Shown: positions 40,000 through 59,255, counted from the first letter of the stretch. The stretch: 64,000 nucleotides of DNA from an uncultured Salinisphaerales bacterium (GCA_913055805.1 CAJXLF010000006.1:1735-65734); one strand, 5' to 3'. Notes: generated from the letters alone by a model not told the origin. Numbers and translations: made by a program.

Positions 40000-42900
40000 T
40001 TATGCCACGTATTTAAACTCTTGAATAGCGGCTTGATACGACTTTTCGATTTCGGCTCTCTGATCTGCCTGCTTTATAGAGTCATGATCAACTCTGCGTT
40101 CCCCCCAAATAACCACACTCAATTCAAGTCCACGTTTCTGTAAATAGTTAGCTAACACTGACTTTCGGATAAAAAGAAAGTCCACACGATTTCGCCAGTT
40201 CTCCCCTTCTGAGAGATACAAAGTGGCTAATCTACCGTTTTTATCCCGTAGATTTATAGATCGCCCAAAACTTACCAGGGATTCCGAATCACAAAGCCAA
40301 GGAGAGGGAAAAGTAAAACCGCTATAATCGTTTACTGTTGAATGATATGACTCCCAAGAAAATGGCCAGCGAAAGGACTCAGCTTCAATACTATTCACAG
40401 TGCGCCATCCCTCGTTGTCCTGATATCCAGACTTAAGTTCCTTCAAGGCAGGTACTTGATGCAATATTTCGTACAACGAAAGTCTTTGATCTCGAGGAAC
40501 TTCCTGATTAACCCGTTCTAGTTCACGGATAACCAGACTTAACGCCTTTTCCCTACCTGTCTCAGTGCGAGCCCGGTGGTATTTCAACAATACCGAATAG
40601 TCGAATAAGAACCAGGTCTTCCGTAGGCGAATTTTGGTTTTAAATCGCTGATGAGATCCAAAAAGCCTATGCATTGGGTTCACGAGCTTCCCGGAATGGG
40701 TTCTCATTTCTGCTGCGAATCTTTTACTCCACCCTACCTCGCCCGCATATGCATAATGATCCCCTCTAACATCTGGCAGTTCTCCCCCAGCATTAGTGGC
40801 GTTTATAAACGCGGCACTAAATCGCTCAGATTCTTCCGGACGAATTCCTAGAGCCCTAATTACAGTGAAGATGCTTAGCCCCGAACTTTCGTCTTCTTCC
40901 CAAATATCCCCGTCCACAAGTACCCAAGGTCCTCGGTGGCCTCCGATTGCGGGAACTTCTAGGATTGAGTCATAACTCGGAATAGGGCCGTTTTGTAGCC
41001 AACCAAGAGGACTATAGTGGTGAGTTTCAGAACCGATTGTTCGCTGATATGTTGGGAGCGGAAATTTCTCAGGAACCGGAAAACTTGGGTCTATATCGCA
41101 ATCACTAGAGCGTTCGAAACCGTCATCTATTAATTTATGGGCTTGACGATATCCATACATTTCAAAATACGCAATCCAGCAGTATTTCTTTCCGTACCTG
41201 TCTACCTTATCGCCACCTTCTCGCCGCCAATTAATCCGTCCGATCATACTGTCAATATCTGAAAACACTTTTTCATCGTAGCCGAGCTCTATGACACGCC
41301 ACTCTATCTGATTACGCACGTCCTGATAGATCGGATGTTTCATATCATAGTTACTACGATCGGGTATCAGTCTACCAAGCGTGTAATTCTCAAAGTCCAT
41401 CATCATAACCCGCTTGGTCTTTTCCTTAATGGAGCCTGAAATTGCACTCGGATTTGGGAAGGGGTTATCAATCGCCGGATACGGGGCTTTCAAATATCTT
41501 TTGCACCCTCGAGGCACCAAACTTGGGTCAAATTTTTGTGCTAACTCGATAATCCCAAGTGCGTAATCACGCATTAATACATGGTGAGTATGGGCCCGCC
41601 CTCCAGGAAGGAACCATTCCTTAACAAGCCATTTTGCTAAGGTAACCAAATATCCTCCAAACCGCTTTCCAGGGCGAATCGCATATTTACTCATTGCCAC
41701 TCCGAAACAAGCAGCAAGAACTCGCTCGCGAACATATGGGTCATCAATATCGAGAGTAACGTGCATAAAATCAAAAAGAGCTCTGGGTTGCAGCTCTCCT
41801 ACTAAGACTAGTGCTTTAGTAGCTCTGTCTCTTAGCCGCCGATCAGTTGTGGTCAGGAACGAAGAAAGGACAGCCACCACGTTTATAGCTGTGTCGAACT
41901 TCAGATTGTTTATCAATCCACTTTCGTAAAATGCAACAATGCGCTCAACGGCTGAACCAGAATCATGGTGATAGCGTATATATTCGCTCCAAGTGCAATC
42001 TCTCCTCTGCATTGAGACTCGTGCTAGATTTCGCATCAAACGCATGCCGCAATAAGGATGCCGAGGTTTAGTGGCCATTGAAACAAGAGCCTCTGAAGCG
42101 GCCCTCTGCCACGTATCGTGCGAACTCCAAAAATATCCGCCTAAAACCTGGTCAGTTTGCTTACTAATAGAAAAGGGGGATCGCCAGATCAGGCCTCGAA
42201 TAAACGGATCAAAATACGCCTGGAAATCACGCGCACGCTTTGGGAGATAAAAGAATAACTCACGTGCATCTTGGGGTAGGCATTTCTTAGTGTATTCAGG
42301 GAACTCAAGAATGATCGCTTCCGCCCAATTTTCTGTGTCGAATCGTGGATAAAATTCACTACTTACGCGAAATATTTTTCCGAGAGGTTGATTCGCGTAG
42401 AAACTGCGACGGATAGAATTCGCGTCGCGAGTGTTGAGATGCTCTCTCAGTAAGTATCTAGCGACTATATGATCACTAAAGCGCTGATAAGGCATGCCAA
42501 CAACATGTAGGGAGCCACCATCATCATCAGGGCGCCAAAGTTGGTTCTCAACCAATACCCCTTCTCGCACCAATAATCTCAGTAGCAACTTCGCTCGATG
42601 CAAGGAACTGATTTCTGGACGTGCTCTAAAAATTTCTAACGTTTTCTTATATGGGACCCATTCGGTTAGATGATGTCCCATGTAACTCGCCAGCCCAGAT
42701 AATTCAGGATCATTTATTGACTTTTTCCCCTTAAGCGCATCCCAGCAAAATTTCGCTGGCAGTCCCATTTCCCTTTCTATTGCCTTAGTACGCTCGAACA
42801 CAAAATGTTCAAGGATGAATGTCATACCTTTCTGGCCAGAAGATATGCCATGGAATCCTTTGCGTTGATCCTTTCTCGGGAGTGACTGGTATGCCTGACA

Positions 42901-44070
42901 GAGAATCTTCAACGTAAGTGGCCGTGAGAATTCATCAGCCAAGAGCGGTACTTCTGGAAGCGGAATGCCGTAAAAGTTAAAAAATTCTCTTTGGGCATCG
43001 AATTCGATATCGTAAAAACCAACGTGTTTGAGATGCACCATCCGCTTACGCGAACTATCCGGCACAATTGTTCTATCAAACGGTTCTCGGCAGCTTACTA
43101 CCAACCCCACATGGGAGTACCCTTTGACGGCAGTAATAAGCTTGGGGACGTCACGTTTCCAAGCTACTGGATCCGATTCATTTATGCCATCTATTAGAAT
43201 CAAACCTCTATACCCTGCTTCCTGACCCATCCGGTCAATGATCTGGATCAAGTCATCAAATGAATTTGCCAAACCCGTAAATTTGGCAAGCTCATCTCCA
43301 CAGGATCCCGCCGGGTCAAAGTCCTTCGCTAATACCACCAAAGATGGTGCCCCATTAGCTGTAAACCGCTTAGCTAGGTCACAAAGGAAATGGGTTTTCC
43401 CCGTGCCCCACTCGCCCGTTAGCATTGCCACCTGGCCAAAACGCAACCGGATCTCTGAGGAATCAAAAAACTCTTTCAGATATCGAACCTCAGAAGATGT
43501 GCGATATAACTGGCTCGAGCGAGATCGTAGGGACTCCAAAACTCGATCTTCCCTATCAGGCGTCTTGCCTCCAGCAGAATTCGTTTTCTCTCTGTCGATC
43601 TCAGCTTTACGTTTATCTATTTTTTCATTGACCTGAGTAATCTCCGATCCTAGGATCTCCCCGATCCGGTCCGCTGCCCTTATTATTTTTTGAACGATCA
43701 CGCGCCCTTCATCGACGGGCTGCTCGCTCATTTCCTTAATTAACTTCGACACGCGATTTGAATATCGCTCAGCTCGTTTTTTACCATCTAGAGCAGACAC
43801 ACACTCAGACATCGCCTTTTCAAACTCATCAAGAACCTGGAGTACTCGGCTCTTGAATTGCTCGTTAACAGCGAGCCCATTCATTGCATTCAGTAATTCA
43901 CCTATTTCCAAGTTTGGCGAATCAGCATCAATACCAGGTGTGTACCTAGGCCCTGCGCTATTTACGGTTCGCTTATTAATTCTGCGTATTCTTTCAATCA
44001 TCTTTGCCGCTACTTGGTTGTTATTTCGAGTTCCCTGCCTCAATAACAAACCGAGCGAGAGAGTGCACAC
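40000..44070 (-). CDS. Giant (about 1330-1356 aa) orphan P-loop NTPase, STAND/KAP-like
   Basis: Walker A is LTGEWGTGKTHF (about nt 43393-43416). Walker B is GLILIDGINES (about nt 43174-43203). It has a charged coiled-coil N-terminus and a roughly 1000-aa C-terminal region with HEAT-like helices. It is low-GC. The start may be GTG 44070 or ATG 44001. Confidence 0.75.
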   Translation of the reverse strand: MCTLSLGLLLRQGTRNNNQVAAKMIERIRRINKRTVNSAGPRYTPGIDADSPNLEIGELLNAMNGLAVNEQFKSRVLQVLDEFEKAMSECVSALDGKKRAERYSNRVSKLIKEMSEQPVDEGRVIVQKIIRAADRIGEILGSEITQVNEKIDKRKAEIDREKTNSAGGKTPDREDRVLESLRSRSSQLYRTSSEVRYLKEFFDSSEIRLRFGQVAMLTGEWGTGKTHFLCDLAKRFTANGAPSLVVLAKDFDPAGSCGDELAKFTGLANSFDDLIQIIDRMGQEAGYRGLILIDGINESDPVAWKRDVPKLITAVKGYSHVGLVVSCREPFDRTIVPDSSRKRMVHLKHVGFYDIEFDAQREFFNFYGIPLPEVPLLADEFSRPLTLKILCQAYQSLPRKDQRKGFHGISSGQKGMTFILEHFVFERTKAIEREMGLPAKFCWDALKGKKSINDPELSGLASYMGHHLTEWVPYKKTLEIFRARPEISSLHRAKLLLRLLVREGVLVENQLWRPDDDGGSLHVVGMPYQRFSDHIVARYLLREHLNTRDANSIRRSFYANQPLGKIFRVSSEFYPRFDTENWAEAIILEFPEYTKKCLPQDARELFFYLPKRARDFQAYFDPFIRGLIWRSPFSISKQTDQVLGGYFWSSHDTWQRAASEALVSMATKPRHPYCGMRLMRNLARVSMQRRDCTWSEYIRYHHDSGSAVERIVAFYESGLINNLKFDTAINVVAVLSSFLTTTDRRLRDRATKALVLVGELQPRALFDFMHVTLDIDDPYVRERVLAACFGVAMSKYAIRPGKRFGGYLVTLAKWLVKEWFLPGGRAHTHHVLMRDYALGIIELAQKFDPSLVPRGCKRYLKAPYPAIDNPFPNPSAISGSIKEKTKRVMMMDFENYTLGRLIPDRSNYDMKHPIYQDVRNQIEWRVIELGYDEKVFSDIDSMIGRINWRREGGDKVDRYGKKYCWIAYFEMYGYRQAHKLIDDGFERSSDCDIDPSFPVPEKFPLPTYQRTIGSETHHYSPLGWLQNGPIPSYDSILEVPAIGGHRGPWVLVDGDIWEEDESSGLSIFTVIRALGIRPEESERFSAAFINATNAGGELPDVRGDHYAYAGEVGWSKRFAAEMRTHSGKLVNPMHRLFGSHQRFKTKIRLRKTWFLFDYSVLLKYHRARTETGREKALSLVIRELERVNQEVPRDQRLSLYEILHQVPALKELKSGYQDNEGWRTVNSIEAESFRWPFSWESYHSTVNDYSGFTFPSPWLCDSESLVSFGRSINLRDKNGRLATLYLSEGENWRNRVDFLFIRKSVLANYLQKRGLELSVVIWGERRVDHDSIKQADQRAEIEKSYQAAIQEFKYVA

Positions 44071-44260: not shown

Positions 44261-44500
44261 TTATAGTGCTTTTTCCAAGCGCTCTATAAACTCGACTGAA
44301 CCAATCCCAACAGCTTTGCAGATATCTCTCAACTCAAGAATATCCACTCGCTTATCGCCAGTTTCAAACTTATGGACGTAGTTCTGGCTATGACCAAGTT
44401 TTTCAGCCAGTTCCCACTGCGTCAGCCCAGCCTCAAGGCGCACCTCACGAAGTAACTTCGAGAGTATTTCCTGTTCTTTTGTCCAGCGTTTCTTGCCCAT
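44261..44500 (-). CDS. XRE family helix-turn-helix regulator
   Basis: The HTH is LTQWELAEKLGHSQNYVHKFETG. It is 79 aa and lies upstream of the giant NTPase on the same strand. Confidence 0.85.
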   Translation of the reverse strand: MGKKRWTKEQEILSKLLREVRLEAGLTQWELAEKLGHSQNYVHKFETGDKRVDILELRDICKAVGIGSVEFIERLEKAL

Positions 44501-46814: not shown

Positions 46815-47522
46815 ATGTGTGGCCGTTACTTCATTCTTCCGGATCCCGCCTCCTGGAACGAGGTGCGAGAGGAATTTGGTGACGAAGTTGCCGATCAAAT
46901 CGCGCAAAGCAAGCCTCGATACAACGTCGCCCCGTCGCAACAAATCATCTTTATCCGCAATCTGGAAGAAGGGGCCACTAGCGATGAGGCAGTTTGGACG
47001 TTCATCCCCCACTGGTGGAAGCAGTCCGGTCTTCCCAAATTCTCAACCAAGAATGCTCGCGCTGAGGACGCTGCCAACAAACCGATGTGGAAGCACGCCT
47101 ACCGGCACAACCGCTGCCTTATACCTTTATCGGGCTGGTATGAATGGACGCAGGAGTCTTGGGGAAAACAGCCTTGGCTTTTCCGCGATCCAGGCGGGCA
47201 AGGCATGCTCGTGGCCGGCTTATGGTCAGTCTGGCAGCAGACCGAAGACACCAGCCCTATGCTGACCTGTGCGATCCTGACACGGGAAGCGCTACCGTCT
47301 CTATACGAGATTCATGACAGGATGCCGGTGGTCCTGGAACGCGCTGCGTGGAAACGCTGGCTGGATCCTAATCTTACCGATCCCGACGAGATTACCCGGC
47401 TCTGGCAGGAAAACACGAAACAGACAATTGAGGTCTTTCCAGTCAGCAAGGCTGTGAACTCCTCACGCAATGACGGCCCGGATCTCATTGAACGAGTCGA
47501 CCTGAAGCCAAAGCCCTTTTAG
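46815..47522 (+). CDS. SOS response-associated peptidase (SRAP / YedK-like, DUF159)
   Basis: It has the N-terminal MCGRY with the catalytic Cys2. It also has NVAPSQ, HDRMPVVL and the typical length of about 235 aa. Confidence 0.85.
   Translation: MCGRYFILPDPASWNEVREEFGDEVADQIAQSKPRYNVAPSQQIIFIRNLEEGATSDEAVWTFIPHWWKQSGLPKFSTKNARAEDAANKPMWKHAYRHNRCLIPLSGWYEWTQESWGKQPWLFRDPGGQGMLVAGLWSVWQQTEDTSPMLTCAILTREALPSLYEIHDRMPVVLERAAWKRWLDPNLTDPDEITRLWQENTKQTIEVFPVSKAVNSSRNDGPDLIERVDLKPKPF
47485..47520 (+). repeat. Direct repeat copy 1 (last 36 nt of the SRAP gene)
   Basis: tcattgaacgagtcgacctgaagccaaagccctttt matches 49650-49685 at 34 of 36 positions. Confidence 0.85.
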
Positions 47523-47686
47523 CGGTATTCGGATTTATGGTGGGCAACATTGCAGTTACCAGCTACTCATATTGATATGGTAAAAACTGTATCGGTATTC
47601 ACAAGCTCATAAATCAATTGAATCAGGAGTAACCTCATAAAAGTGCTTACCTTATTCCACGTATCTAATCCCCACAGGGGTACATG

Positions 47687-47711
47687 ATATACGGCACTTT
47701 TGTCCGTATAT
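47687..47711. promoter_or_regulatory. Perfect 8-bp inverted repeat ATATACGG-N9-CCGTATAT
   Basis: It ends 26 nt upstream of the ATG at 47737. It could be an operator or a 5' hairpin. Confidence 0.3.
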
Positions 47712-47736
47712 TATTTGTTAAACGTCTCGGTGACCG

Positions 47737-48576
47737 ATGGCAGAAAATCCGAACACTGAATACGAGCGTTTGGCGCAAGAGATCTACCAGGCACTGGCGG
47801 GATCTGAGGCCAACAACATCAAAGTCCAGCACAACGTGCTGGTCAAGGGCAGGTCTGGCTGTGAACACCAGATTGATGTTTATTGGGAGTTTTCATCCAT
47901 GGGAGAAACTCACAGAGTCGCGATCGAATGCAAGAACTACAGCCATAATGTCTCGATCGGACGTATCCGCGATTTTCATGCGGCCCTCTTGGATGTGGGG
48001 AACATCAACGGCATCGTGGTTACAAAGCATGGGTTCCAAAGCGGCGCGGTTAAGTACGCCAATTATTACGGCATTTCATTGAAAGAGTGCCGTTTCCCGA
48101 CGCCCAGTGATTGGGAAGGTAGGGTGAAGGACATCGTAATTTCGATCCACGCGTTCATGCCTCACATCACCTCACGTGAGCCAGTTATTGATCTCGCGTG
48201 GGCAGTCGCAAATACCGACCTAAAGGAAGGTGATTCGTTCTCATTCACTGGATACAGCAACGAAATCCAAATCACCGATGAACAAGGCGATGAAATTACA
48301 AATTTCCATGAAATGGAAAGCAAGTTGCCCCAGAACTGGAAGGAAGAAACCGGGCTGACGCACGACTATAAATTTGATAACGCGTACATCGTTGTTCCGG
48401 CTCATGGGCGCCTGAAGCTACTTGGCGTCAAGTACACGTATGATGTCCGCTCCGCTTCATCCGAAACTATTTTGGAAGGTGAAGAAATCGCTCGTGCCAT
48501 ACTCAAAGATGTTCAGTCGGGTGGTATGCACTTCTACGATAAAGATGGAAACATCGCGGAGAAGAGAGACGTATAA
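47737..48576 (+). CDS. Mrr-like restriction-endonuclease-domain protein with an unknown C-terminal domain
   Basis: HQIDVYW...RVAIECKNYSHNVSIGRIRDFHAALLDVGNINGIVVTKHGFQSGAVKYA follows the Mrr_cat D...ExK pattern. The roughly 150-aa C-terminal half is unrecognised. Confidence 0.6.
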   Translation: MAENPNTEYERLAQEIYQALAGSEANNIKVQHNVLVKGRSGCEHQIDVYWEFSSMGETHRVAIECKNYSHNVSIGRIRDFHAALLDVGNINGIVVTKHGFQSGAVKYANYYGISLKECRFPTPSDWEGRVKDIVISIHAFMPHITSREPVIDLAWAVANTDLKEGDSFSFTGYSNEIQITDEQGDEITNFHEMESKLPQNWKEETGLTHDYKFDNAYIVVPAHGRLKLLGVKYTYDVRSASSETILEGEEIARAILKDVQSGGMHFYDKDGNIAEKRDV

Positions 48577-48602
48577 CTCAGTAGTTTTGTTCCAGATAAC
48601 CA

Positions 48603-49247
48603 ATGAGCATTGATAAGGCACTTCACGCACTCGAGGCGTTCCAAGGAGACTCGTTGACTGAGAGTCTCTCGGACATTGAACGCCAGATCATTGGGTCTGG
48701 CGTTGAAGACATGGACGGCTTCTGCGCGATGCGAGGTCTCGACGGTACCTTCATGGATGCCGCCATAGCTGTGAAGCGCGTTGCGGGGCAGATCAACGTC
48801 ATCATCCACGCTGCTGGAATTCTTCGCTCTCTTTCTAGTCTCCTTGAGCCTGGAGAAAAAGTAGAAAGCGTGTCATTGGGGGCGGGCAACACTGGTCGCC
48901 AGTTCGACCTTGAGACCAACATGCGTGTCGCTGAATATAAGTTCATTGACTGGCAGGGCGGTCCAGAGTCCATCCGCCAAAATGGTATTTTCAAGGATTA
49001 CTTCGAGCTAGCAGAGTACGAGACCCCCAAGAAAAAGTACCTGTACGTTGTCGGAACAGAGTACCCCCTAAAATTCTTCAATGGAGGGCGTGCACTGACC
49101 AGTGTCCTCAGCCGCAATCCGAAAATTTTATCGCACATCCATGAGAAGTACGGCAACAGTATCGCCAAGGTTCGCGACTACTACGAGATGAAGAAGAACG
49201 ACGTGACCATTTGCGATGTCACTCCGTACATCAGCAGGAGCGCATAA
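48603..49247 (+). CDS. Hypothetical protein, possible PD-(D/E)xK nuclease
   Basis: It is 214 aa. The candidate motif is GRQFDLETNMRVAEYKF (D-x8-E-x-K). I recall no family match. Confidence 0.45.
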   Translation: MSIDKALHALEAFQGDSLTESLSDIERQIIGSGVEDMDGFCAMRGLDGTFMDAAIAVKRVAGQINVIIHAAGILRSLSSLLEPGEKVESVSLGAGNTGRQFDLETNMRVAEYKFIDWQGGPESIRQNGIFKDYFELAEYETPKKKYLYVVGTEYPLKFFNGGRALTSVLSRNPKILSHIHEKYGNSIAKVRDYYEMKKNDVTICDVTPYISRSA

Positions 49248-49294
49248 CAAGCTTAGGATTCCGGCCGCTCAGCTCCGACCTTAGGTAGCAATTG

Positions 49295-49639
49295 ATGGCA
49301 TCAACAAAGAGCTTAGATGGGTTTGTTTACAATCTTGCCCAAAAATTTAATCTGTCCTGCGAGCATATTTGCCGGATGCTTAATACAAGTGAATTCCCAG
49401 AATTCCGGGCCGATCTCATAACAGGAGAAATCACACCGCCAGAATTTGATATCAGACGCAATAGAATTCTCGTGGACAGAGTTAGAGATTTTTACACCTA
49501 TACAATCGCGCCAATTATAGGCACCAACTGCGTAAGAGCAGAAATAATCTTAACTACGTCGGGTTTTAAGTCCACGACTACAGCTGAAGTAGAAGATTCA
49601 GAAGGTAAAATTTGGTCTAAAGCTATATCTACTGCGTGA
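49295..49639 (+). CDS. Hypothetical 114-aa protein
   Basis: The ORF-track start at 49292 is a TTG, and an ATG follows at 49295. No motifs were recognised. Confidence 0.4.
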   Translation: MASTKSLDGFVYNLAQKFNLSCEHICRMLNTSEFPEFRADLITGEITPPEFDIRRNRILVDRVRDFYTYTIAPIIGTNCVRAEIILTTSGFKSTTTAEVEDSEGKIWSKAISTA

Positions 49640-49649
49640 TTCACGGACA

Positions 49650-49685
49650 TCATTGAACGGGTCGACCTGAAGCCAAAGTCCTTTT
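49650..49685 (+). repeat. Direct repeat copy 2 (relic of an SRAP 3' end)
   Basis: tcattgaacgggtcgacctgaagccaaagtcctttt still reads in frame as IIERVDLKPKSF followed by TGA at 49685-49687. Confidence 0.85.
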
Positions 49686-49689
49686 GAAG

Positions 49690-50490
49690 ATGAAATTTGC
49701 TCTCGTCAACGGAGAACGCCAAGAGGCCCAGCCAAATCTTTCAGGCACGTGCCCAACTTGCAATCACCCGATGGTTGCAAAGTGCGGAGAAGTTCGGATG
49801 TGGCACTGGGCTCACCAAGGAACCCGTTCATGCGACCCATGGTGGGAGAATGAAACCGAATGGCACCGCGCTTGGAAGGGACAGTTTCCCGTCCACTGGC
49901 AGGAGATCGTTCATACAGCTGAAACCGGTGAGAAGCATATTGCGGATGTAAAGACTGATCGCGATTGGGTGATCGAGTTCCAACATTCGTATATCAAGCC
50001 GGAAGAGCGTCGGTCTCGTGATGCCTTTTACCCAAAATTAGTTTGGGTGGTAAATGGAACAAGACGAAGGAGAGATAGGGTTCAATTTGCAAATGTGTGG
50101 AACGAGGGTTTGCAGCTAAACTCTTCTGTTCGACTGGTCGACTCGGATAAATGCCTACTCCTGAAGGAATGGGCAAGCAGCCATTGGCCAATATTCTTCG
50201 ACTTCCGCGAAGAGCATGTGCTTTGGTGGCTTCTCCATAGAAGTAAAAACAAAGATCGGTTGGTATACGTCGCACCGTTTGCGCGTGCAGACTTTATCGA
50301 AAGCCACTATGTCGGAGCAACACAAGAGGGCCAAAATTTCGATGACATTGTGAGAGGTATCGGCGAACTTGATGTGCGTCACGAATTACAACTCTGGGAC
50401 AAGGCGTTGAAACGCTCTGAACCGAAACAACCACTTCGAAACTTCGAACGATACTTGTATCTCAAGGGGAAGCGTCAGAGACGGTTTTAA
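49690..50490 (+). CDS. CoiA-like (competence protein CoiA family) nuclease-fold protein
   Basis: CPTCNHPMVAKCGEVRMWHWAH....ENETEWHRAWK and HIADV...VIEFQHS match the CoiA family pattern as I recall it. Confidence 0.65.
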   Translation: MKFALVNGERQEAQPNLSGTCPTCNHPMVAKCGEVRMWHWAHQGTRSCDPWWENETEWHRAWKGQFPVHWQEIVHTAETGEKHIADVKTDRDWVIEFQHSYIKPEERRSRDAFYPKLVWVVNGTRRRRDRVQFANVWNEGLQLNSSVRLVDSDKCLLLKEWASSHWPIFFDFREEHVLWWLLHRSKNKDRLVYVAPFARADFIESHYVGATQEGQNFDDIVRGIGELDVRHELQLWDKALKRSEPKQPLRNFERYLYLKGKRQRRF

Positions 50491-50543: not shown

Positions 50544-51035
50544 ATGCGGGTAGCCACGACTCAAGATCTGCCGCGAATTGTTGAAATATATAATTCGACT
50601 ATCTCTTCACGTACAGCCACGGCAGACACTGTCCCAGTATCAATCGAGAGCAAAGTCGCTTGGTTTAATGCCCATAATCCCGCCACTAGGCCATTGTTAG
50701 TTAAAGAGCGAAATTCCACCTTAATTGGCTGGTTAAGCTTTGAAAATTTCTATGGCCGTCCGGCATATTCACATACGGCAGAAATAAGCATCTATATAGA
50801 TGAAAAGTTTAGAGGTATGGGGCTAGGTAAAGAAATGCTGCAGTATGCTATCGAGTTAGCTCCTTCTCTCAACTTGAAGAATCTTCTGGGTTTTGTGTTC
50901 AGGCACAACCAGGCAAGCATTGCGTTACTCTCTAATTTTGGTTTTGAGCAGTGGGGTTTATTGCCAAACATCGCAACAATGGATGGTGAGTCTTATGCGC
51001 TCTGTATTTATGGCTTGTCACTATCTGATACCTAA
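50544..51035 (+). CDS. GNAT family N-acetyltransferase (phosphinothricin/amino-acid acetyltransferase-like)
   Basis: It has the acetyl-CoA loop FRGMGLGKEML. The PAT-like N-terminus is IVEIYNSTISSRTATADT, followed by FGFEQWG. Confidence 0.85.
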   Translation: MRVATTQDLPRIVEIYNSTISSRTATADTVPVSIESKVAWFNAHNPATRPLLVKERNSTLIGWLSFENFYGRPAYSHTAEISIYIDEKFRGMGLGKEMLQYAIELAPSLNLKNLLGFVFRHNQASIALLSNFGFEQWGLLPNIATMDGESYALCIYGLSLSDT

Positions 51036-51105
51036 CACCTCGCGAAACATTGCACCTTCGGGGTGGGACGCGCCTTTCAGACGTGCCCCTTAACTTCATC
51101 CAGCG

Positions 51106-52068
51106 TTGGGCATCAAGGTGAGCCAATTCAACTTCCGCGTTCGATTCAATCTACCTAATGGCTTTCGCATCAATGCAGAAGAAGAGAAGCTGCATCTAGT
51201 TCAGCTACCTTCAGGAGTGGAGCTAATTCTGACGACCGGCCAGACAGGAGTCCCGATCAAGGAATGCTCCAGGGCAGTGGTGACGGGAAAAGGCTTTGAA
51301 ACGGCAGAAGAAGCGCAGGCTGTCGCGGAAAAGGTAAAGAGGGTTTTGCTCTTCTGGTCCGTAAAATATCGTCATGGCATAGATTTAGGTGACGGCCGTC
51401 AACGTAGTGTCGCAACGAATGCTGGTCTGGCACTCCTAGAACAAGAGCATGGCTGTCCGTTCCGCAATGACATACACGGGATCGATGTATTCGAGCATCA
51501 AGATAACTTGAAGTTCGTGCATGTGGGAATGCAGGCTACTGCACAGAAGCATCCGCGATATCTCGTAGAAACATTTCAAGAGGAGATTCATGCCAGTCGC
51601 TCGGTCAGCCCAAAGCAAGAATTGGCGTGCGAGCTTTACGTCAGTTCGTGGTTTGATGTCAGTTACAGAAGCCGATTCATTACTTTGGTGACAGCGGTCG
51701 AAGCTCTGATAGAGCAAAATGAGCACCCTGAGGAGGTGGCCGCTCTGCTGAACTCCACCAACACGAACCTTAAAAGCCTTCCTCTCCCGGCGGATGTCGT
51801 AGCGTCCATTTCTGGAGGCTTGGGGCGGTTGAAGCGCCAGTCAATTAGTCAAGCTGGTAGGGAGTTGGCCAGAGCCCTGCTGCCCAATCGTCAGTTCCAG
51901 GGAAAGGATGCCGATAAGTACTTTTCATATTGCTATAACCTCCGGAGCGAAATTCTTCATAACGGTGCACCGCCCGACGGAGTGGATATGCTTCAAGTTG
52001 CGAACGAGGCAGAGGAATTCGTGTCGGCATTGCTGCTTGCTTCACTCGGGGAAGCGTCGGCGTGTTGA
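51106..52068 (+). CDS. Hypothetical protein with a possible C-terminal HEPN domain
   Basis: It has an R-x4-H motif (LRSEILH) in an all-helical C-terminal region (FITLVTAVEALIE...). The start is non-ATG, either TTG 51106 or GTG 51118. Confidence 0.4.
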   Translation: MGIKVSQFNFRVRFNLPNGFRINAEEEKLHLVQLPSGVELILTTGQTGVPIKECSRAVVTGKGFETAEEAQAVAEKVKRVLLFWSVKYRHGIDLGDGRQRSVATNAGLALLEQEHGCPFRNDIHGIDVFEHQDNLKFVHVGMQATAQKHPRYLVETFQEEIHASRSVSPKQELACELYVSSWFDVSYRSRFITLVTAVEALIEQNEHPEEVAALLNSTNTNLKSLPLPADVVASISGGLGRLKRQSISQAGRELARALLPNRQFQGKDADKYFSYCYNLRSEILHNGAPPDGVDMLQVANEAEEFVSALLLASLGEASAC

Positions 52069-52150
52069 CACCCAACACTTATGAGGCCTCCAGTAGTCAG
52101 AGGCAAAGGGGAGCCGCTGAGTCTCGAACCCAGGGTGTGGGTTACCCTGC

Positions 52151-52285
52151 GATGTGCGAGAAGCAGCCTACTGGTGGATGATCGAGTACAACGAAGAGCG
52201 GCCCCATGACTCACTGGGTGATCTGACACCCGTTGAGCACTATGCCAAGTACACCGGAAACTCTAGTTTACAACTGTCCGCTTGA
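52151..52285 (+). mobile_element. IS3-family transposase 3' remnant (pseudogene fragment)
   Basis: It translates to DVREAAYWWMIEYNEERPHDSLGDLTPVEHYAK...*, which is the integrase-core C-terminal signature. A stop lies upstream in frame at 52118 and there is no N-terminal part. Confidence 0.6.
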
Positions 52286-52601: not shown

Positions 52602-52739
52602 CTCTTATAATTTGCACGACGCGCTAACCCTTGGCGTTGCAACTGCCACCTAACAAGACAATGCAGTTGACAGTTTTCCGCTATGCTCCAAACGGTAAGT
52701 GATGGTATTCGTTGGCCAGCGATACTGACGGAGGTACAT

Positions 52740-53468
52740 ATGCCCCTTAACGCCAGTCTAGTGCCGACTCTCGCGCTAGCAACGTTCGCCGTTGCCGGGT
52801 GCTCACCAAGTGAGCCGGGCCCACGGTTGGCAGACTCTAACGCAAGAGAAATCATGGAAGAATACTGCAGTGAGGGCATTTGGCGAATTCAACTCGGGGA
52901 TGTTGAAGTTCTCCGACCAGGATTCCGCCAAGCTGAAGAGCGCCAGACACTCAGTCAACCCCAAGCTGGCAACTCCAAAAAGCCTCGGCTCTCAGCGAAC
53001 GCTTACCAGGACCTCAAGACATGGCAGGTTGCGGGTCTAATCGAGATAACAACCAAAGAGATTCTTGGTGAGAGATCTAGCCGTCAGGACGGCGTTCAGA
53101 TGGTTGTACATGTTTCTGCCACGGAGCGCGGTCGGGAATTCGACGCCGAGTCCAGTTCAAAGGACAGTCTTGTCATACGTTCCGCGCCTTGTCGGGTGGA
53201 TGCAATCGTGACCAATCAACTCATCACAACGGATGCGGATATCTTCAGAATTGTAAAGGGTACTTATACCAGTCAACTCTCGGATGAACTCACGCGATAC
53301 TACGAGGCCATCGGTCATCCACGCACAAGTGAGCGAAAATTCCAGCTCCTCCTAAAGTTCGATCCGTTTGATAAGGACTGGAACATCGTTGCCTATGATG
53401 GCGCAAACATTAGTTCGGAGTTCCCCTCGGACAAAGTTGGGAAATACCTTTCCGGGCTAAGCCGATGA
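52740..53468 (+). CDS. Lipoprotein, unknown function
   Basis: ATG 52740 has a GGAGG SD. The signal MPLNASLVPTLALATFAVAGC carries a lipobox. Confidence 0.55.
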   Translation: MPLNASLVPTLALATFAVAGCSPSEPGPRLADSNAREIMEEYCSEGIWRIQLGDVEVLRPGFRQAEERQTLSQPQAGNSKKPRLSANAYQDLKTWQVAGLIEITTKEILGERSSRQDGVQMVVHVSATERGREFDAESSSKDSLVIRSAPCRVDAIVTNQLITTDADIFRIVKGTYTSQLSDELTRYYEAIGHPRTSERKFQLLLKFDPFDKDWNIVAYDGANISSEFPSDKVGKYLSGLSR

Positions 53469-53529
53469 AGCAGACGGTCGCCTTCTGTACCGCAGCTTAT
53501 TGGCGGGCCGTTAGAGAAAAACACCTCGC

Positions 53530-54177
53530 ATGTCCAAAGATAAACCAGGAATCATAGAAAAATCATCTAGCGATACCGCTCATACCCTAGCTAAAGCGGG
53601 TCTTTCTGCTGTGCCCATTTTTGGGGGGGCTGCAGCTGAGATTTTTCAAATGCTAGTACAGCCACCTCTTGAGCGCAGGCGCCAGATTTGGATGAGAGAA
53701 GTAGGCGCACGCCTAAAGACATTAGAAGATGAAGGCTTCAAACTAGAGCAGCTTCAAAATGATGAAAGATTTATATCAACCGTCTTGCACGCTTCAAACT
53801 TGGCGCTTCGTACACATCAGGAAGAGAAGCGCAAAGCGCTTCGAAACGCAATTATAAATGTAGCTAAAGGTCAGTCACCTGAGGAAGCAGTTGAATTTAT
53901 GTTTCTAGAATATATTGATTCACTATCTGTGCTGCATATAAAAATCCTCCGCTTTCTTCAAGAAAGATCCCCGTCAATGAACATCAACATTAGACGTAAT
54001 CTCTTGGGGCAGAATATTCCAGAATTAGTAGGGCAAGAGGGTTTATATCATCGGTTCCGCGAGGACCTCGCTTTAAAGGGCTTGATCATTAAAAATGGAG
54101 GGCGAGGAAAGCTTTCTGAGCATAAACGTACAACCTGGCTTGGGGATGAATTTCTAGCGTTTATTTCTGAGCGTTAA
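53530..54177 (+). CDS. Hypothetical protein (weak Abi-alpha/DUF4393-like pattern)
   Basis: It is 215 aa and helical. The segment EEKRKALRNAIINVAKG....FMFLEYIDSLSVLHIKILRFL resembles the DUF4393 core as I recall it. This is not verified. Confidence 0.4.
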   Translation: MSKDKPGIIEKSSSDTAHTLAKAGLSAVPIFGGAAAEIFQMLVQPPLERRRQIWMREVGARLKTLEDEGFKLEQLQNDERFISTVLHASNLALRTHQEEKRKALRNAIINVAKGQSPEEAVEFMFLEYIDSLSVLHIKILRFLQERSPSMNINIRRNLLGQNIPELVGQEGLYHRFREDLALKGLIIKNGGRGKLSEHKRTTWLGDEFLAFISER

Positions 54178-54373
54178 GAAAATGCTCTATCAAGTCACTC
54201 AACGAGGATGTTGAGCATCCCCTGAAAAAGTGGGTGCTTATAGTTCCATCGGTAGACGACTAGCAACGTGGACTCCTTGCGCAATAATAGTCCTAGCCTC
54301 ACTCACAAGACCGATATAAAGCCACGTTCCATCTCGGCCCCGTAACCGATTTCTTGACTTCTGGGCACCTCTG

Positions 54374-54410: not shown

Positions 54411-54896
54411 ATGAATTCGTTCCAGAGCCCCCAATTTGCGGCCGGCGGCCAAGCCAATGCGATTCTCATGGGTCAGGCTGCAGAGCAGCCAGAACGCGTC
54501 TACCGGCCTCTAGTGGAGTCTCCCAGGCCACAGGCAGGCTTCCCGTCCCCAGCCGCCGATTATGTGGAGCAGCCGCTCGATCTGAACGAATTGCTGGTTC
54601 GCAACCCGCCGGCCACCTTCTTCGCTCGTGTATGCGGCTATTCGCTGGTGGACAGGGCCATCCTGAATGGCGACATCGTCTCGGTTGATCGTTCCATTGA
54701 CCCTACATTCGGCAAAGTCGTTGTGGCTACCGCTGACGGCGATATTTACATCAAGGAGCTTGGAAAGGTGAACGGCCGGCCGGCTCTTATTTCCCGCAAC
54801 GAAAAGCATGCACATACTTACCCGCCAATCATCCTGGATGAGGTTCAGGATTACGAAATCTTCGGTGTGGTCACAGGAGTCGTGCGTACCCTGTAA
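54411..54896 (+). CDS. umuD: Translesion polymerase V accessory subunit UmuD (S24 self-cleaving)
   Basis: [21 protein letters not shown] aligns with the E. coli UmuD cleavage region. The catalytic Ser (GYSL) and Lys (IKEL) are retained. Confidence 0.9.
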
Positions 54897-56155
54897 TGCC
54901 GCTCTTCGCCCTGGCCGACGTCAATAATTTCTACGCGAGCTGCGAAAAGGTCTTTGACCCCAAGCTGCGGGGCAAGCCCGTCGTCGTCCTGTCCAATAAT
55001 GATGGCTGTGTGGTCGCCCGCTCACCGGAGGCCAAGGCGCTTGGCATCGGTATGGCTGTTCCCTGGCATGAACTCAAGGACGGCCTGCCTGGGGTTATTG
55101 CTTTGTCAAGCAACTACACCCTCTATGCGGATATGAGTAACCGCGTGATGCGCATTCTGGGCGATATGGTGCCCGCTCAGGAGATTTACTCCATTGACGA
55201 AACCTTCCTCGATCTGACAGGAATCAAGCGCCCTGACGAGCTGGGACATGCCATGAAGGCCAGAGTCGCCCAGTGGATCGGGCTACCCATCTGTGTGGGC
55301 ATGGGCTCCACCAAGACTCGAGCCAAGATCAGCAACCATGTGGCCAAGAAGCAGCCGCAGTACGGCGGGGTGTTCGACCTGGAAACTCTGACGCCGCCTC
55401 AAGAGGATGCCCTCCTGACCAGCATTGACGTGGGAGAGGTCTGGGGCGTAGGCAGCCGGATCGCCAAGCGTCTTCGGGGCATGGCCATCGAAACCGTGAA
55501 GGACTTGCGGGACGCAGATCCCAAGGTCATGCAAGATCAGTTCAGCGTGGTGCTGGAACGCACTGTCAAGGAATTAAAAGGCACCTCCTGCCTGGAGCTG
55601 GAAGAGGTTTATCCACCGAAGCAACAAATCATGTGCTCACATAGCTTCGGGAGAGACATCAGCGAATTTCAGGATTTGCGAGAGGCACTGTCCACCTACA
55701 CCGCCAGGGCCTGCGAGAAGCTGCGGGCGCAGCAGCATATGGCAGGCGCAGTCTACACCTTCATCCACACCAATCCCTTCAAAAAGGGGCCACAACTTTC
55801 ACGCGGAATCACGTTGCCATTAGGCGACCAGACGGATGACACGCTGACGATTTCCAAGTACGTTCAGAACGCCCTTCGAGCACTGTATTTCCCCGGATAC
55901 CGTTACAAAAAAGCCGGCGTCATGTTGATGGAATTGAGGCCCAAAGAGATGCGGCAGACGGCCCTGTTTGATGACCCGGCCAGGCTTAAAAAACGTGATG
56001 AACTCAACAAAGCGTTGGATACCCTGAATCTGGAATATGGGCTCGGAACCGTCTCATTCGGGGTCACCAAAGGCCGGAAAAACTGGAAGATGCGGCAACT
56101 GAATAAAACGCCTCGATATACGACGCGGTGGAGCGATTTGATGCGAGTTCATTAG
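54896..56155 (+). CDS. umuC: Y-family DNA polymerase UmuC
   Basis: The N-terminus is [51 protein letters not shown]. It overlaps umuD by TAATG. Confidence 0.9.
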
Positions 56156-56302: not shown

Positions 56303-58378
56303 TTAGTCTCGATTTTGGGGCTCACCGAAAAAGTCAACGTACGCTTTTCTATCAAAACTAATATGAATATGTGTGCCATTGGGCTTATTGTCGTATGTGA
56401 CTCTCTTCAGTTCACCGCCATAATAAAATGATAGACGTCGCCCAACACCCCATTGTTGCTCCACATCGCTGCCAGAATCTTTTCCCTCTCGCTGATTTAA
56501 TTTAGAGGCAAGAAGAGCCTTGTCTTCATGCACCGCGCCGGGAGTAACACTTTGCCGAGTATCCCCAATATCCGATGTACGTTCCTCAACAATGACCATG
56601 TATAAATCACCTAACGACTCCGAGATTTTTTTTGCGTCGTTATGTCTAACGCTCGGCAAAACAGCCTCTACCTTTACGGGCTCGGGGTTAGTGAATGGGG
56701 CGGGAACCGCTACGGAAGGAACTTCGACCTTTTGAGCCATATGAACGAAGTCAACCCCTCCACGCAAGGAATGATTTCCGGAAGGATCATCTTTAGGGTC
56801 TCGCTTTGCTGAGGTAATCTGATAATTCTCGTTGGCTAACTTTTCTCGCATCTTCTTTTCAATTTCTGCTCTCAAATTTTTATCAATTTCTGATTTCTTC
56901 GCGTTAACAACTTGTTGCTCTTCCCATCTTTTTTTTTCATTTTCATCGCGCAAGCGTTTCGCTTTTTCCTCGCGCGCCCTGGCTTCTTGTTCTTCGTACA
57001 GACGCTGGCGTTTTCTCTCCTCTTCTACTGACCCATAATATTTGCAATGAGCCATACATCGATCTGCTTTTGCAATCGATAATTCCGAATCGACTCGTCC
57101 TTTGTGACATGGCTCAAAAATCCCATAGTAGCTATCCCGAAAGCCATAACATGAAGTTGATAACTTCTGACGTAGAGCTGATATCTTCTCTACAGGACAA
57201 CTAGCGGCCACTGATGAAGCCACACGATTCCTACATTCGGTGCCATACGGTTCGAGCATGTTCCAGCATCTACCAAAGGGCAGCCCATCAACGTAAACCG
57301 TATTCCTCATTGGGAAGGAACGATGCTGATCAGTTGGTTGTCTTGGTGAATCGGCCGCACAAAATTTGAAATATATATCTGGACTAATGTAGGCCCTATC
57401 ACAAAGATCATTTATTACGCGTTTTTGCAGGCTATCATCTTTCGAATTTCGCCTCTGCTTATCGTCACCACGCGCTCCTGGTGTTCTCTCTGAATATTGC
57501 TGAATAACAAATCTCGACAAATCCTCAAAACACGATGGTGTAGACCATTGCTTTTCCGCCTTGTATCCGAAAGCCGACCGATAAGTTAAAAACCGCATGT
57601 CTTGAGATGGTTCAATCTCAGGAATTGCCCAGGCCACAAGCGAGAACGCGGCATCTAAGGACTCCCCCGTTAACAACCGTCCTACACAAGAAATATCATT
57701 GCAATAATGCTCAAAATCACGCTTACCTAGCTTTGATGACAACTCTCGATCGACAATATTAACTGCTTCTTGAAACGTTCTTATACTTCTTGCCGACGTT
57801 GGATCATCGAAAAATTCAAGCTCCCGATTATCAAAAAGTTGAGGTAGCCAATCTGCCTGAGAAGTTACAGGCACGCCATCTAAAGCATCAAGCCGAAGCC
57901 AGTCAATCGCAAGCGAAGCAGGAGAAAGCCCTAACCCCATATCAGTTGCTGAAAATTTAAGAGTGTTTTGGCATGTGTTAGGTAGAAGCTTATTTAGCTC
58001 ATCTTCCAAGGTCCGTTCACGTAGCACCACGAATGCATTAAACCAAATACGAAATGCTGTTAGACCCAAGTCACTCTTCAAATCAAATCCACCTCGGGTC
58101 TCACGCGCGATAGCATGTGCAGCTTTAACAATGGTTGCTTCACGAACTGCTTTTTCGCACGGAGTCAATGGCTTTGATGGCTGCTCTAAAAGGTCAAATG
58201 CCAAAACTTTAGTGGATATTCCAGAGGCAACTAAAATAAAGAGGAAACATCCCAACCAGCCTTTCATATGCTTCGGTTTATTCATGTATGCAGAAGCACA
58301 ATGTTTATAAGTTCGTTTCTTAGTAAACAGATTACCCTGTCCGGCGAATCTAACACCCAGATCTTCTGATTCGGACAT
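56303..58378 (-). CDS. 691-aa membrane-anchored Cys-rich protein with an E/K/R-rich coiled coil, unknown function
   Basis: It has a GGGAGAA SD before ATG 58378 and one TM or signal anchor (WLGCFLFILVASGISTKVLA). A charged stretch reads EEERKRQRLYEEQEARAREEKAKRLRDENEKKRWEE. It is low-GC. Confidence 0.6.
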   Translation of the reverse strand: MSESEDLGVRFAGQGNLFTKKRTYKHCASAYMNKPKHMKGWLGCFLFILVASGISTKVLAFDLLEQPSKPLTPCEKAVREATIVKAAHAIARETRGGFDLKSDLGLTAFRIWFNAFVVLRERTLEDELNKLLPNTCQNTLKFSATDMGLGLSPASLAIDWLRLDALDGVPVTSQADWLPQLFDNRELEFFDDPTSARSIRTFQEAVNIVDRELSSKLGKRDFEHYCNDISCVGRLLTGESLDAAFSLVAWAIPEIEPSQDMRFLTYRSAFGYKAEKQWSTPSCFEDLSRFVIQQYSERTPGARGDDKQRRNSKDDSLQKRVINDLCDRAYISPDIYFKFCAADSPRQPTDQHRSFPMRNTVYVDGLPFGRCWNMLEPYGTECRNRVASSVAASCPVEKISALRQKLSTSCYGFRDSYYGIFEPCHKGRVDSELSIAKADRCMAHCKYYGSVEEERKRQRLYEEQEARAREEKAKRLRDENEKKRWEEQQVVNAKKSEIDKNLRAEIEKKMREKLANENYQITSAKRDPKDDPSGNHSLRGGVDFVHMAQKVEVPSVAVPAPFTNPEPVKVEAVLPSVRHNDAKKISESLGDLYMVIVEERTSDIGDTRQSVTPGAVHEDKALLASKLNQREGKDSGSDVEQQWGVGRRLSFYYGGELKRVTYDNKPNGTHIHISFDRKAYVDFFGEPQNRD

Positions 58379-58740: not shown

Positions 58741-58910
58741 CGTGATCGCGGCGACAAACGCGACGAAACGAAGTGCAGGAGCGGCCGCCCGCCCCGTCCC
58801 GGGGCTGCCCTGGTTTGCGGGGCCGACCGCGCGGCCTAGCGCGGCGGAGTCCGAGGGCCCCCAGGCCCGGAGGACCCATGAGAACCGAAGCCCGAAAACG
58901 AGCAGGTACG

Positions 58911-58986
58911 GGCCCCGAACTGTCCGCCAACGGCGGCAGTTTGGGCCTGCGAGTTTCGGGTCCGCCCGCAGGGCGGAGTTCGAAAT
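58911..58986 (+). repeat. GC-rich nested-hairpin elements, units C and D
   Basis: Unit C has the outer stem CCCGAACTG/CAGTTTGGG, with a G:T at the same position as unit B, around CCGCC-aac-GGCGG. Unit D has TTTCG/CGAAA around TCCGCCC-gca-GGGCGGA. Confidence 0.6.
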
Positions 58987-59200
58987 GGCCCGCGAAGCGG
59001 GGCAGCCGCGGAACGCGGCGGGCGGCGCAAGGTCCGACAGGACCGCGCAGGCGAGCATGCTCGCCGAAGTCTTACAGACGAAGCAAATCACTGATTTGCA
59101 AGGCATCTAAGTTAGCGAGCACGGCTCGCGTGGCGCCAGAAAGGGGTGCTGTCGCCGGGGTAACCACCCTACTACTGCCACGCCTATGCCACGTCAGCGC

Positions 59201-59244
59201 CGGGGTGTGGTGCCGGTGTGGCTGTAGACGAGGTGCGGGTGTGG
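59201..59244 (+). repeat. Iteron-like direct repeats C(G)GGTGTGG x3
   Basis: The copies are at 59201-59210, 59213-59221 and 59236-59244, directly upstream of the SD and ATG at 59256. Opposite-sense CCACNNC motifs lie at 59164, 59178 and 59189. Confidence 0.35.
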
Positions 59245-59255
59245 AGGATTTAACG

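Follow-up and report, generated by a model that had tools for sequence, protein, structure and literature searches.

Organization of the Locus

The stretch of DNA considered here, a window of 64,000 nucleotides from an uncultured Salinisphaerales bacterium (GCA_913055805.1 CAJXLF010000006.1:1735-65734), carries a gene for an SRAP (YedK-like) protein whose 3' end is repeated about 2.1 kb downstream, directly before a CoiA-like gene, and three open reading frames (ORFs) lie between the two copies. Comparison with related loci indicates that these three genes are most likely unrelated integron cassettes in a row and that the repeat is probably a recombination or deletion scar in a decayed, integrase-less cassette array. 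Positions are counted from the first nucleotide of the window, and the features of immediate concern are as follows.

46815-47522 (+): SRAP (YedK-like) gene, 235 amino acids (aa), starting MCGR; Pfam PF02586, 8.5e-63
47479-47520 (+): repeat copy 1, formed by the final 42 nt of the SRAP coding sequence
47737-48576 (+): gene for a 279-aa nuclease with an Mrr/MspJI-like PD-(D/E)xK N terminus and a conserved beta-rich C-terminal domain
48603-49247 (+): gene for a 214-aa protein with a PD-(D/E)xK-type core (D102, E111, K113), from a large unannotated family
49295-49639 (+): ORF3, 114 aa, start ATG 49295, from a small-protein family, truncated at its 3' end
49644-49687 (+): repeat copy 2, the relic of an SRAP 3' end, DIIERVDLKPKSF plus TGA
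49690-50490 (+): CoiA-like gene, 266 aa; Pfam CoiA_N, 1.1e-8

The Repeated 3' End of the SRAP Gene

A sequence-only reading of the window had described a 36-nt duplication of the end of the SRAP gene. The duplication is confirmed and proves to be longer, extending over 42 nt with 38/42 identical positions (47479-47520 vs 49644-49685) and including a perfect 18-nt core, GTCGACCTGAAGCCAAAG. A 27-nt pattern search of the window finds exactly two sites, 0.00 being expected from 100 shuffles, and no third copy is present in the 64 kb when the 18-nt core is sought with up to 3 mismatches. The repeat is by far the strongest direct repeat of the 22-kb low-GC island in which the locus lies, and no other direct repeat in that island is convincing as a mark of its ends. 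Local alignment of the SRAP gene with 49248-49700 recovers these 42 nt alone, and when the repeat is removed, the next-best alignment has a score of 22, compared with 19.3 on average and 27 at most for shuffled sequences.

Copy 2 reads in frame as D-I-I-E-R-V-D-L-K-P-K-S-F-stop, with the TGA at 49685-49687, and is followed by the two nucleotides "ag" and then by the CoiA-like ATG at 49690. The CoiA-like gene truly begins here, as 80 metagenomic homologs align from residue 1, so that sequence and homologs agree with the earlier description of an in-frame SRAP C terminus and stop codon 2 nt before the CoiA-like start. The same reading was also correct in placing three encoded proteins between the copies, namely a 279-aa protein with an Mrr_cat domain, a 214-aa protein with a D-x8-E-x-K motif, and a 114-aa ORF, and in finding no methylase, recombinase, or transposase within the 2.1 kb.

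The two copies differ at 4 positions, 2 of which are synonymous. The tail of the intact protein, ERVDLKPKPF, is peculiar to the SRAP lineage of the window, the nearest homologs ending in ...GPDLIAPLLE and similar sequences, and the relic therefore derives from a close relative of this very SRAP gene. In a large protein search the nearest SRAP homologs are 44-46% identical; the collections searched contain no relative above 46% identity and no empty site, and a scan of species-representative genomes gives one match, from Kouleothrix, which at 37% identity is of no use for an empty-site comparison. Exact look-ups of the SRAP, Mrr-type, 214-aa, and CoiA-like proteins return copies of this island only, present in several metagenomes in the same arrangement with 99.99-100% DNA identity; the repeat and its junctions were found at no second locus.

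Integron Cassettes in Comparator Loci

The homologs of three genes of the locus, those for the Mrr-type, 214-aa, and CoiA-like proteins, were examined at the DNA level for the properties of integron cassettes. DNA similarity between the Mrr gene and its closest relatives (loci L100-L104) is confined to 47716-48581, and that between the 214-aa gene and its closest relatives to 48578-49251. In each case the similarity covers the ORF and about 20-25 nt upstream; its upstream edge coincides with the GTT that opens a GTTRRRY box, and the sequences preceding it are unrelated. The window GTTAAAC at the start of the Mrr cassette is aligned with GTTATAT in L100 and GTTAGAC in L104, and the window GTTTTGT at the start of the 214-aa cassette (about 48578-48594) is aligned with GTTATGC of L011, L008, and L010.

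In L011 and L008 the 214-aa cassette has the form G|TTATGC-(12 nt)-ATG...gcaTAAC, followed by an imperfect palindrome that ends in G|TTACGT (L011) or G|TTATAC (L008). The R'' box of these sites, GCATAAC, is the exact complement of the 5' end of the cassette itself, as expected of a cassette that can be circularized. In L104 the Mrr gene lies between G|TTAGAC and an attC site ending in G|TTAGGC.

A covariance model (CM), R1, was built from 13 attC sites, taken exclusively from loci outside the window, with 18 base pairs set from the folds of the individual sequences. An initial heuristic that combined boxes with constrained folding was dropped because of an excess of false positives in GC-rich coding DNA, and RNAalifold gave no consensus for the attC seeds. 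R1 identifies 28-29 attC sites in the comparator loci (E values between 1e-11 and 6e-4), every one of them on the strand of the genes; many are outside the training set, and they flank homologs of the 214-aa, Mrr, and CoiA-like genes. Sites are found by CM on both sides of the 214-aa gene in L007/L008/L009 and L011 (E from 4e-11 to 2e-6) and, in L104, next to the Mrr gene (E = 3e-4 and 6e-7); the Mrr gene of L100 is also in an array. The CoiA-like gene is present as a cassette in L019, L024, L038, L040, L045, L047, L048, L050, L082, and others; many of its homologs start about 55-60 nt past GTTAGGC and have a GCCTAAC...GTTRRRY site downstream. The 214-aa, Mrr-type, and CoiA-like genes are thus integron gene cassettes elsewhere.

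Among the homologs of the CoiA-like protein in soil and sediment metagenomes, annotated as "competence protein" (L014-L093; 54-76% identity), occurrence as an integron cassette is very common (for example L019 867-1903, L040 7861-9003, and L082 149-1122). Their leader of ~55 nt after GTTAGGC is conserved.

A Probable Eroded Array in the Window

Corresponding boundaries and attC-like sites can be traced in the window at the positions expected from the comparator loci. They are listed here with the genes and relics that they adjoin.

47687-47711 (unstranded): AT-rich hairpin (ATATACGG...CCGTATAT), immediately preceding the first cassette boundary; single-stranded DNA fold z = -2.7 and -2.9 for the two strands
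47717-47723 (+): G|TTAAAC, 5' boundary of the Mrr-type cassette (R' core), 14 nt before the Mrr ATG
48571-48590 (+): collapsed Mrr attC, R'' GTATAAC-tcagta-degenerate R' G|TTTTGT, the R' starting the 214-aa cassette
49242-49286 (+): attC of the 214-aa cassette, truncated to R'' GCATAAC plus the L'-R' half ccggccgctcagctccgac-C|TTAGGT, aligned with the intact attC of L011 and L008
50522-50528 (+): G|TTAGGT, 5' boundary of a GNAT cassette; the upstream CoiA attC is cut to about 34 nt
50544-51035 (+): GNAT acetyltransferase cassette; Pfam Acetyltransf_1, 6.3e-16
51030-51111 (+): GNAT attC-like site, R'' ACCTAAC ... R' G|TTGGGC, with an 82-nt spacer
52070-52285 (+): R'' ACCCAAC after gene u316 (51118-52068), then a transposase relic
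52154-52282 (+): the relic itself, 43 aa of the C terminus of an IS3-family transposase (rve_3, 9e-8), interrupting the attC-like site after u316
52648-52717 (+): attC-like site ACCTAAC...G|TTGGCC upstream of gene u242; CM R1 11.4 bits (E = 0.88), second model R2 12.1 bits (E = 0.49)
53459-53508 (+): attC remnant after u242 (52740-53468), with L boxes TGAAGC...GCTTA kept and R boxes mutated
54197-54216 (+): collapsed attC after gene u215 (53530-54177), ACTCAAC-gaggat-GTTGAGC

The R'' box of the Mrr cassette, GTATAAC, is complementary to the 5' TTAAAC of the same cassette at 5/6 positions, and that of the GNAT cassette, ACCTAAC, is complementary to its own 5' TTAGGT at 6/6. The GNAT site has a score of 10.6-11.8 bits with R1, which is not significant, and folds poorly. 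In the remnant following the 214-aa gene the 5' half and center are deleted, with the result that it has a score of 7.6 bits with R2 and no fold. The best match to an attC model in the window is the remnant at 53459-53508 (R2 17.4 bits, E = 0.02; R1 15 bits). As the attC scores in the window are weak, the array is recognized from position, box complementarity, and homology and not from intact sites; from these we infer an eroded, integrase-less (CALIN-like) array that occupies the + strand between about 47.7 and 54.2 kb. The rve_3 relic is evidence of past insertion sequence activity and of decay in the array. Standard integron tools would probably miss this array or call it in part.

The sites at 48571-48590 and 54197-54216 have the same minimal form, R''-6 nt-R', which suggests a recurrent, precise deletion of the palindrome between the R boxes. 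The hairpin at 47687-47711 could be a weak terminator or what is left of a site of the attC/attG type.

The Three Genes Are Not One System

The arrangement of the three genes between the repeat copies invites interpretation as a defense module, as the sequence-only reading had proposed. They are on the same strand and tightly spaced, with gaps of 26 and 47 nt, two of the three encode nuclease-type proteins, and they are found in a defense island next to Avs2. A genuine conserved system of two nucleases and a small protein, mobile as a unit, would be expected to recur, and a check of co-occurrence shows that the genes have different neighbors elsewhere. In 7 independent neighborhoods the gene upstream of the 214-aa homolog is DUF4357, DUF2199, a membrane protein gene, or another unrelated gene and never Mrr_cat; Mrr-family homologs never adjoin the 214-aa gene in the contexts examined, so that the two groups are not mutual neighbors in about a dozen independent contexts. 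In a plasmid collection, relatives of the 279-aa protein are present in 13 records and those of the 214-aa protein in 8, with no record containing both. The GC content at third codon positions (GC3) also differs sharply within the trio, being 0.58, 0.63, and 0.36 for the Mrr-type, 214-aa, and ORF3 genes, respectively. Each gene has a separate cassette boundary, and the tight spacing is accounted for by the collapsed attC sites. The three genes are therefore not one defense system but unrelated cassettes in a row, and a three-gene system that moves as a unit is scarcely credible at this locus. It is plausible that the two nucleases act independently, each as a single-gene, methylase-less anti-phage or anti-plasmid nuclease.

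Origin of the Repeat

Copy 2 takes the place that an ORF3 attC and a leader for the CoiA cassette would be expected to occupy. Both edges of the relic are breakpoints: on the left, relatives of ORF3 extend beyond the point where the relic begins, and on the right, the boundary and leader of the CoiA cassette are missing. The account that we consider probable is that of a decayed CALIN-like cassette array in which the SRAP repeat is a recombination or deletion scar. Each cassette gene would have arrived separately, by recombination between attC sites catalyzed by an integron integrase with crossover at G|TTRRRY; this mode of arrival is observed for the homologs, and we infer it for the copies in the window. 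The array would later have lost its integrase, and deletion and mutation of the attC palindromes would have frozen the cassettes in place. Copy 2 may then represent the final 14 codons of another copy or allele of SRAP, roughly 90% identical to the first, left as a stub between two breakpoints, of which the left one would have removed the last ~7 codons of ORF3 together with its attC and the right one the 5' boundary of the CoiA-like cassette with its ~55-nt leader. A possible single-event route to this structure is one-sided homologous (homology-facilitated illegitimate) recombination, in which incoming DNA containing SRAP' and cassettes would have entered a resident SRAP-CoiA arrangement.

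Recombination of this type is known for natural transformation (for example, PMC3410848), and transformation shuffles integron cassettes (PMC12614218). It predicts a homology anchor on one side and an illegitimate join on the other, and the stub of a recipient gene beside a complete donor copy is as predicted; the present locus differs in that its parents were not found, so that no anchor or microhomology is demonstrable.

A different source for the relic would be a local templated patch, in which repair of a break or deletion in the ORF3-CoiA interval copied in about 45 nt of the nearby SRAP 3' end, through template switching or gene conversion-like repair, with no second SRAP gene ever having been present. 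The relic is short and is located exactly where the attC and leader are missing, the template is 2.1 kb away on the same strand, and every attC of the stretch has deletions, consistent with a rearrangement-prone region. A fresh copy should, however, be identical to its template, whereas 4/42 positions differ; with 2 of the 4 differences synonymous, the pattern fits better with a pair of coding alleles that have diverged. Nor would a random patch be expected to end in frame at a stop codon, as this one does, and we regard such a repair event as improbable.

The other alternative to a scar is that the copies are the attL and attR sites of a small integrase-less integrative element (CIME-like) inserted in the 3' end of the SRAP gene, the SRAP end brought by the element now completing the gene as attL (copy 1) and the original end having been pushed downstream as attR (copy 2); such an element would be excisable or exchangeable by an integrase in trans. 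Integrase-less elements that are mobilized in trans are an established concept. The locus resembles islands and CIMEs in gene 3' ends in that a direct repeat of the 3' end, with a perfect 18-nt core, brackets foreign DNA while the target gene is intact and the relic end lies downstream, and the repeat is the sole strong direct repeat in the island. It differs from them in having no integrase, truncated neighboring genes, and no sign of empty or alternative occupancy. None of the ORFs scanned in the 64 kb encodes a tyrosine or serine recombinase. The right junction of the element cuts ORF3 by about 7-10 residues, and no cassette leader separates the relic from the CoiA ATG; both junctions are ragged, resemble illegitimate breakpoints, and are unlike clean att junctions, ORF3 being truncated at the left edge of the relic and the 5' part of the CoiA cassette being replaced at its right edge. 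The cargo, moreover, carries its own, different recombination sites, those of integron cassettes. There is no second example of the repeat or junction, the exact proteins being known in this arrangement only. The SRAP-CoiA junction had also been proposed as a conserved insertion hotspot, a view that is not upheld by the homologs, since SRAP is near 0/80 of the CoiA-like loci and most of those examined have an integron-type leader or attC. The proposal of mobility by a recombinase acting in trans retains its validity, with integron attC sites and G|TTRRRY crossovers in place of the repeat as the sites of recombination. An element of the CIME type appears unlikely as the source of the repeat, as does a role of the SRAP 3' end as a genuine attachment site for mini-islands that lack an integrase.

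It should be recognized that several observations weigh against the preferred account of a scar in an eroded cassette array. With filters off and with both models, no attC in the window is clearly significant, the best E value of 0.02 being based on a rough calibration, and the remaining sites at expected positions, with 7-12 bits, are within noise. The SRAP gene is without cassette features, the nearest SRAP lineage being found in a phage-like or mobile genetic element-like context, and the presence of a SRAP copy within a cassette array is not accounted for. A scar requires at least two illegitimate junctions 45 nt apart. An intact SRAP frame with a displaced 3' end is also a textbook signature of site-specific integration at the 3' end of a gene, and no parental or empty configuration was found in the collections searched. 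The defense role of both nucleases in the window is that of candidates only.

The Nuclease-type Proteins and ORF3

The Mrr_cat domain of the 279-aa protein is matched in Pfam at 1.9e-9, and the protein has 1109 full-length homologs, named "restriction endonuclease" in their sources. Asp47, Glu64, and Lys66 are invariant in the family, as are several residues of the C-terminal domain. In a model from AlphaFold2 (AF2; pLDDT 80.5), the N-terminal ~120 residues are matched by Foldseek over ~110-125 columns to AF1548 (1.2e-5), MspJI (5e-4), AspBHI, Can2/Cdn1, and EndoMS, whereas the C-terminal domain has no match in PDB sequence and profile searches and no fold match by Foldseek. The only match in PADLOC-DB v2 is mREase_IV at E = 0.018. 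The protein shares with MspJI, AspBHI, and Mrr (type IV) the catalytic fold (Foldseek 5e-4 to 9e-3), the conserved D...ExK motif, and the lack of a cognate methylase, but differs in its reversed domain order, with the nuclease N-terminal, and in having no recognizable SRA or winged-helix reader as its second domain. As there is no methylase nearby, the 279-aa protein is most likely a type IV-like nuclease that needs modified DNA or another trigger.

Mrr-family homologs adjoin ThsB-TIR/caspase/DUF6602, cupin, or HEPN genes. In L100-L103, from Acidithiobacillus and related metagenome contigs, genes for ThsB-TIR, a caspase-like Peptidase_C14, DUF6602, and the Mrr-family protein form a same-strand run, and L100 has an attC at 1326-1385 (E = 2e-5) between the caspase and DUF6602 genes; this run is a small array of defense cassettes.

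The 214-aa protein has 2252 detected homologs, with members 78-85% identical to it in the unrelated genera Halomonas, Geoalkalibacter, Tenderia, and Idiomarina, and its family has no assignment in Pfam, NCBIfam, PHROG, or PADLOC. The motif D102-x8-E111-x-K113 is invariant across 40 sequences of the family. In the AF2 model (pLDDT 86.4) the N-terminal half is helical and the invariant motif is contained in a small alpha/beta core; weak fold matches, all to PD-(D/E)xK nucleases, are to BstEII (prob 0.72, E = 0.026, TM 0.33), DUF4297, Cas4, and LmuA. PDB sequence and profile searches found nothing for this protein, and a search of a viral fold library with the model found nothing meaningful. No methylase is beside the gene in the window or in 7 other contexts. 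We tentatively propose that this integron-cassette-borne family is a new, widespread single-gene anti-phage or anti-plasmid nuclease, with the 279-aa Mrr-type protein possibly a second. The sequence-only reading was right in recognizing two nuclease-type candidate defense genes with no methylase and no match to a named defense system, the latter on the basis of PADLOC.

ORF3 had been described as an orphan but has 38 relatives of 120-126 aa (best E = 1e-26) that align over residues 1-113 and continue for ~7-10 residues past the point at which ORF3 meets a TGA and the SRAP relic begins. Neither ORF3 nor the 214-aa protein has a match in PADLOC-DB v2. Collinear weak peptide matches hinted that ORF3 might be a wrecked SRAP paralog, which was rejected by a Smith-Waterman shuffle test (p = 0.12); its origin as a SRAP remnant is also ruled out by its own full-length family and the lack of a Pfam SRAP match.

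Relation to Known Systems

CALINs and eroded cassette arrays are common (10.1101/2025.06.18.660453), and integrase-less cassette arrays (CALIN) are described by Cury et al. 2016, as cited in the same source. Chromosomal integrons have been described as "biobanks" of defense genes (Darracq et al. 2024, 10.1101/2024.07.02.601686), and integron cassettes carry single-gene nuclease defense systems that include Mrr_cat and DUF6602 proteins; for two of these from the Vibrio cholerae chromosomal integron, Epona (an Mrr_cat fusion) and Damona (DUF6602), protection against phage has been shown (10.1101/2024.07.02.601686).

The array in the window is like CALINs and defense integrons in its promoterless-looking, single-ORF genes on one strand with heterogeneous GC content and G|TTRRRY bounds, in R'' boxes that are complementary to cassette 5' ends, in having homologs within attC-rich arrays, and in cargo enriched in small nuclease-type defense candidates. 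It differs in that its attC sites are mostly collapsed, truncated, or mutated, in having no intI in view, and in that one junction holds a fragment of a non-cassette gene, SRAP. By description, which is the sole basis of this comparison, Epona is similar to the 279-aa protein in the fusion of Mrr_cat with another domain in a one-gene cassette, but its partner domain is a holin with two transmembrane segments, whereas that of the protein in the window is soluble, beta-rich, and without a fold match. The DUF6602 of Damona is also found in the gene directly upstream of the Mrr-family homolog in L100-L103.

Integrase-less and eroded arrays and cassette-borne defense genes are thus already known, and what is unusual here is the scar; the locus is of an ordinary type that carries two little-studied candidate defense genes. 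The analysis mostly removes a false lead, in that an apparent att-bracketed module of three genes is most likely a chance row of independent cassettes with a scar, and illustrates that decayed cassette arrays can mimic operons or integrative elements by eye and escape standard integron detection. It also provides a modest positive lead to two widespread, uncharacterized families of single-gene nucleases that are borne on integron cassettes and found in defense islands; given the precedents that exist, both families are reasonable additions to screens of integron-borne defense genes.

Island Setting and Gene Calls

The host DNA has ~61% GC and the island ~45-55% GC, the latter extending from roughly 39.9 to 58.5 kb (18.5 kb). 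The contents of the island are Avs2, a helix-turn-helix (HTH) gene, unknown genes, SRAP, the 2.1-kb block, the CoiA-like and GNAT genes, the rve_3 relic, and UmuDC. The remaining features of the island and its flanks are listed below.

40000-44070 (-): Avs2-type STAND NTPase, 1356 aa; PADLOC Avs2, 3e-162; at the left edge of the island
44261-44500 (-): small HTH gene, next to the Avs2 gene
54411-56155 (+): UmuD-UmuC pair
56303-58378 (-): 691-aa protein with no match in Pfam or PADLOC
58773-60191 (+): 472-aa protein with weak similarity to Replic_Relax/winged HTH, in a GC-rich patch (64-69%)
60267-63991 (-): type III restriction-modification pair, flanking the island on the right

No integrase or resolvase is present among the ORFs scanned in the island and the 64-kb window, the only recombinase trace being the 43-aa rve_3 relic. 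The window contains no intI and attI beside the array, the neighbors of which on the left are the HTH gene and Avs2, and no tRNA genes that could be targets for the island. A scan for promoters and terminators from 46.5 to 51.2 kb gave results at chance level. The type III pair consists of a ResIII/REase_III helicase-nuclease of 859 aa and an MTase_III protein (8e-122); the methylase ORF, which reaches the end of the window and aligns with no more than the C-terminal half of the profile, is probably cut by the window edge.

The UmuD-UmuC pair is in the same island as the SRAP gene, and a SRAP gene also adjoins umuC in the Kouleothrix locus (L013 1290-3943); the association of SRAP with a translesion polymerase gene recurs on mobile DNA.

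In the public contigs that are identical to this locus (L001/L002), ORF3 was missed by automatic gene calling and a 51-aa ORF on the opposite strand, 49498-49653 (-), was called instead; the CoiA-like gene was called at 49798-50490 (+), 36 codons late, with loss of the zinc-ribbon CoiA_N domain. The 214-aa gene is annotated in the NCBI record as encoding 197 aa.

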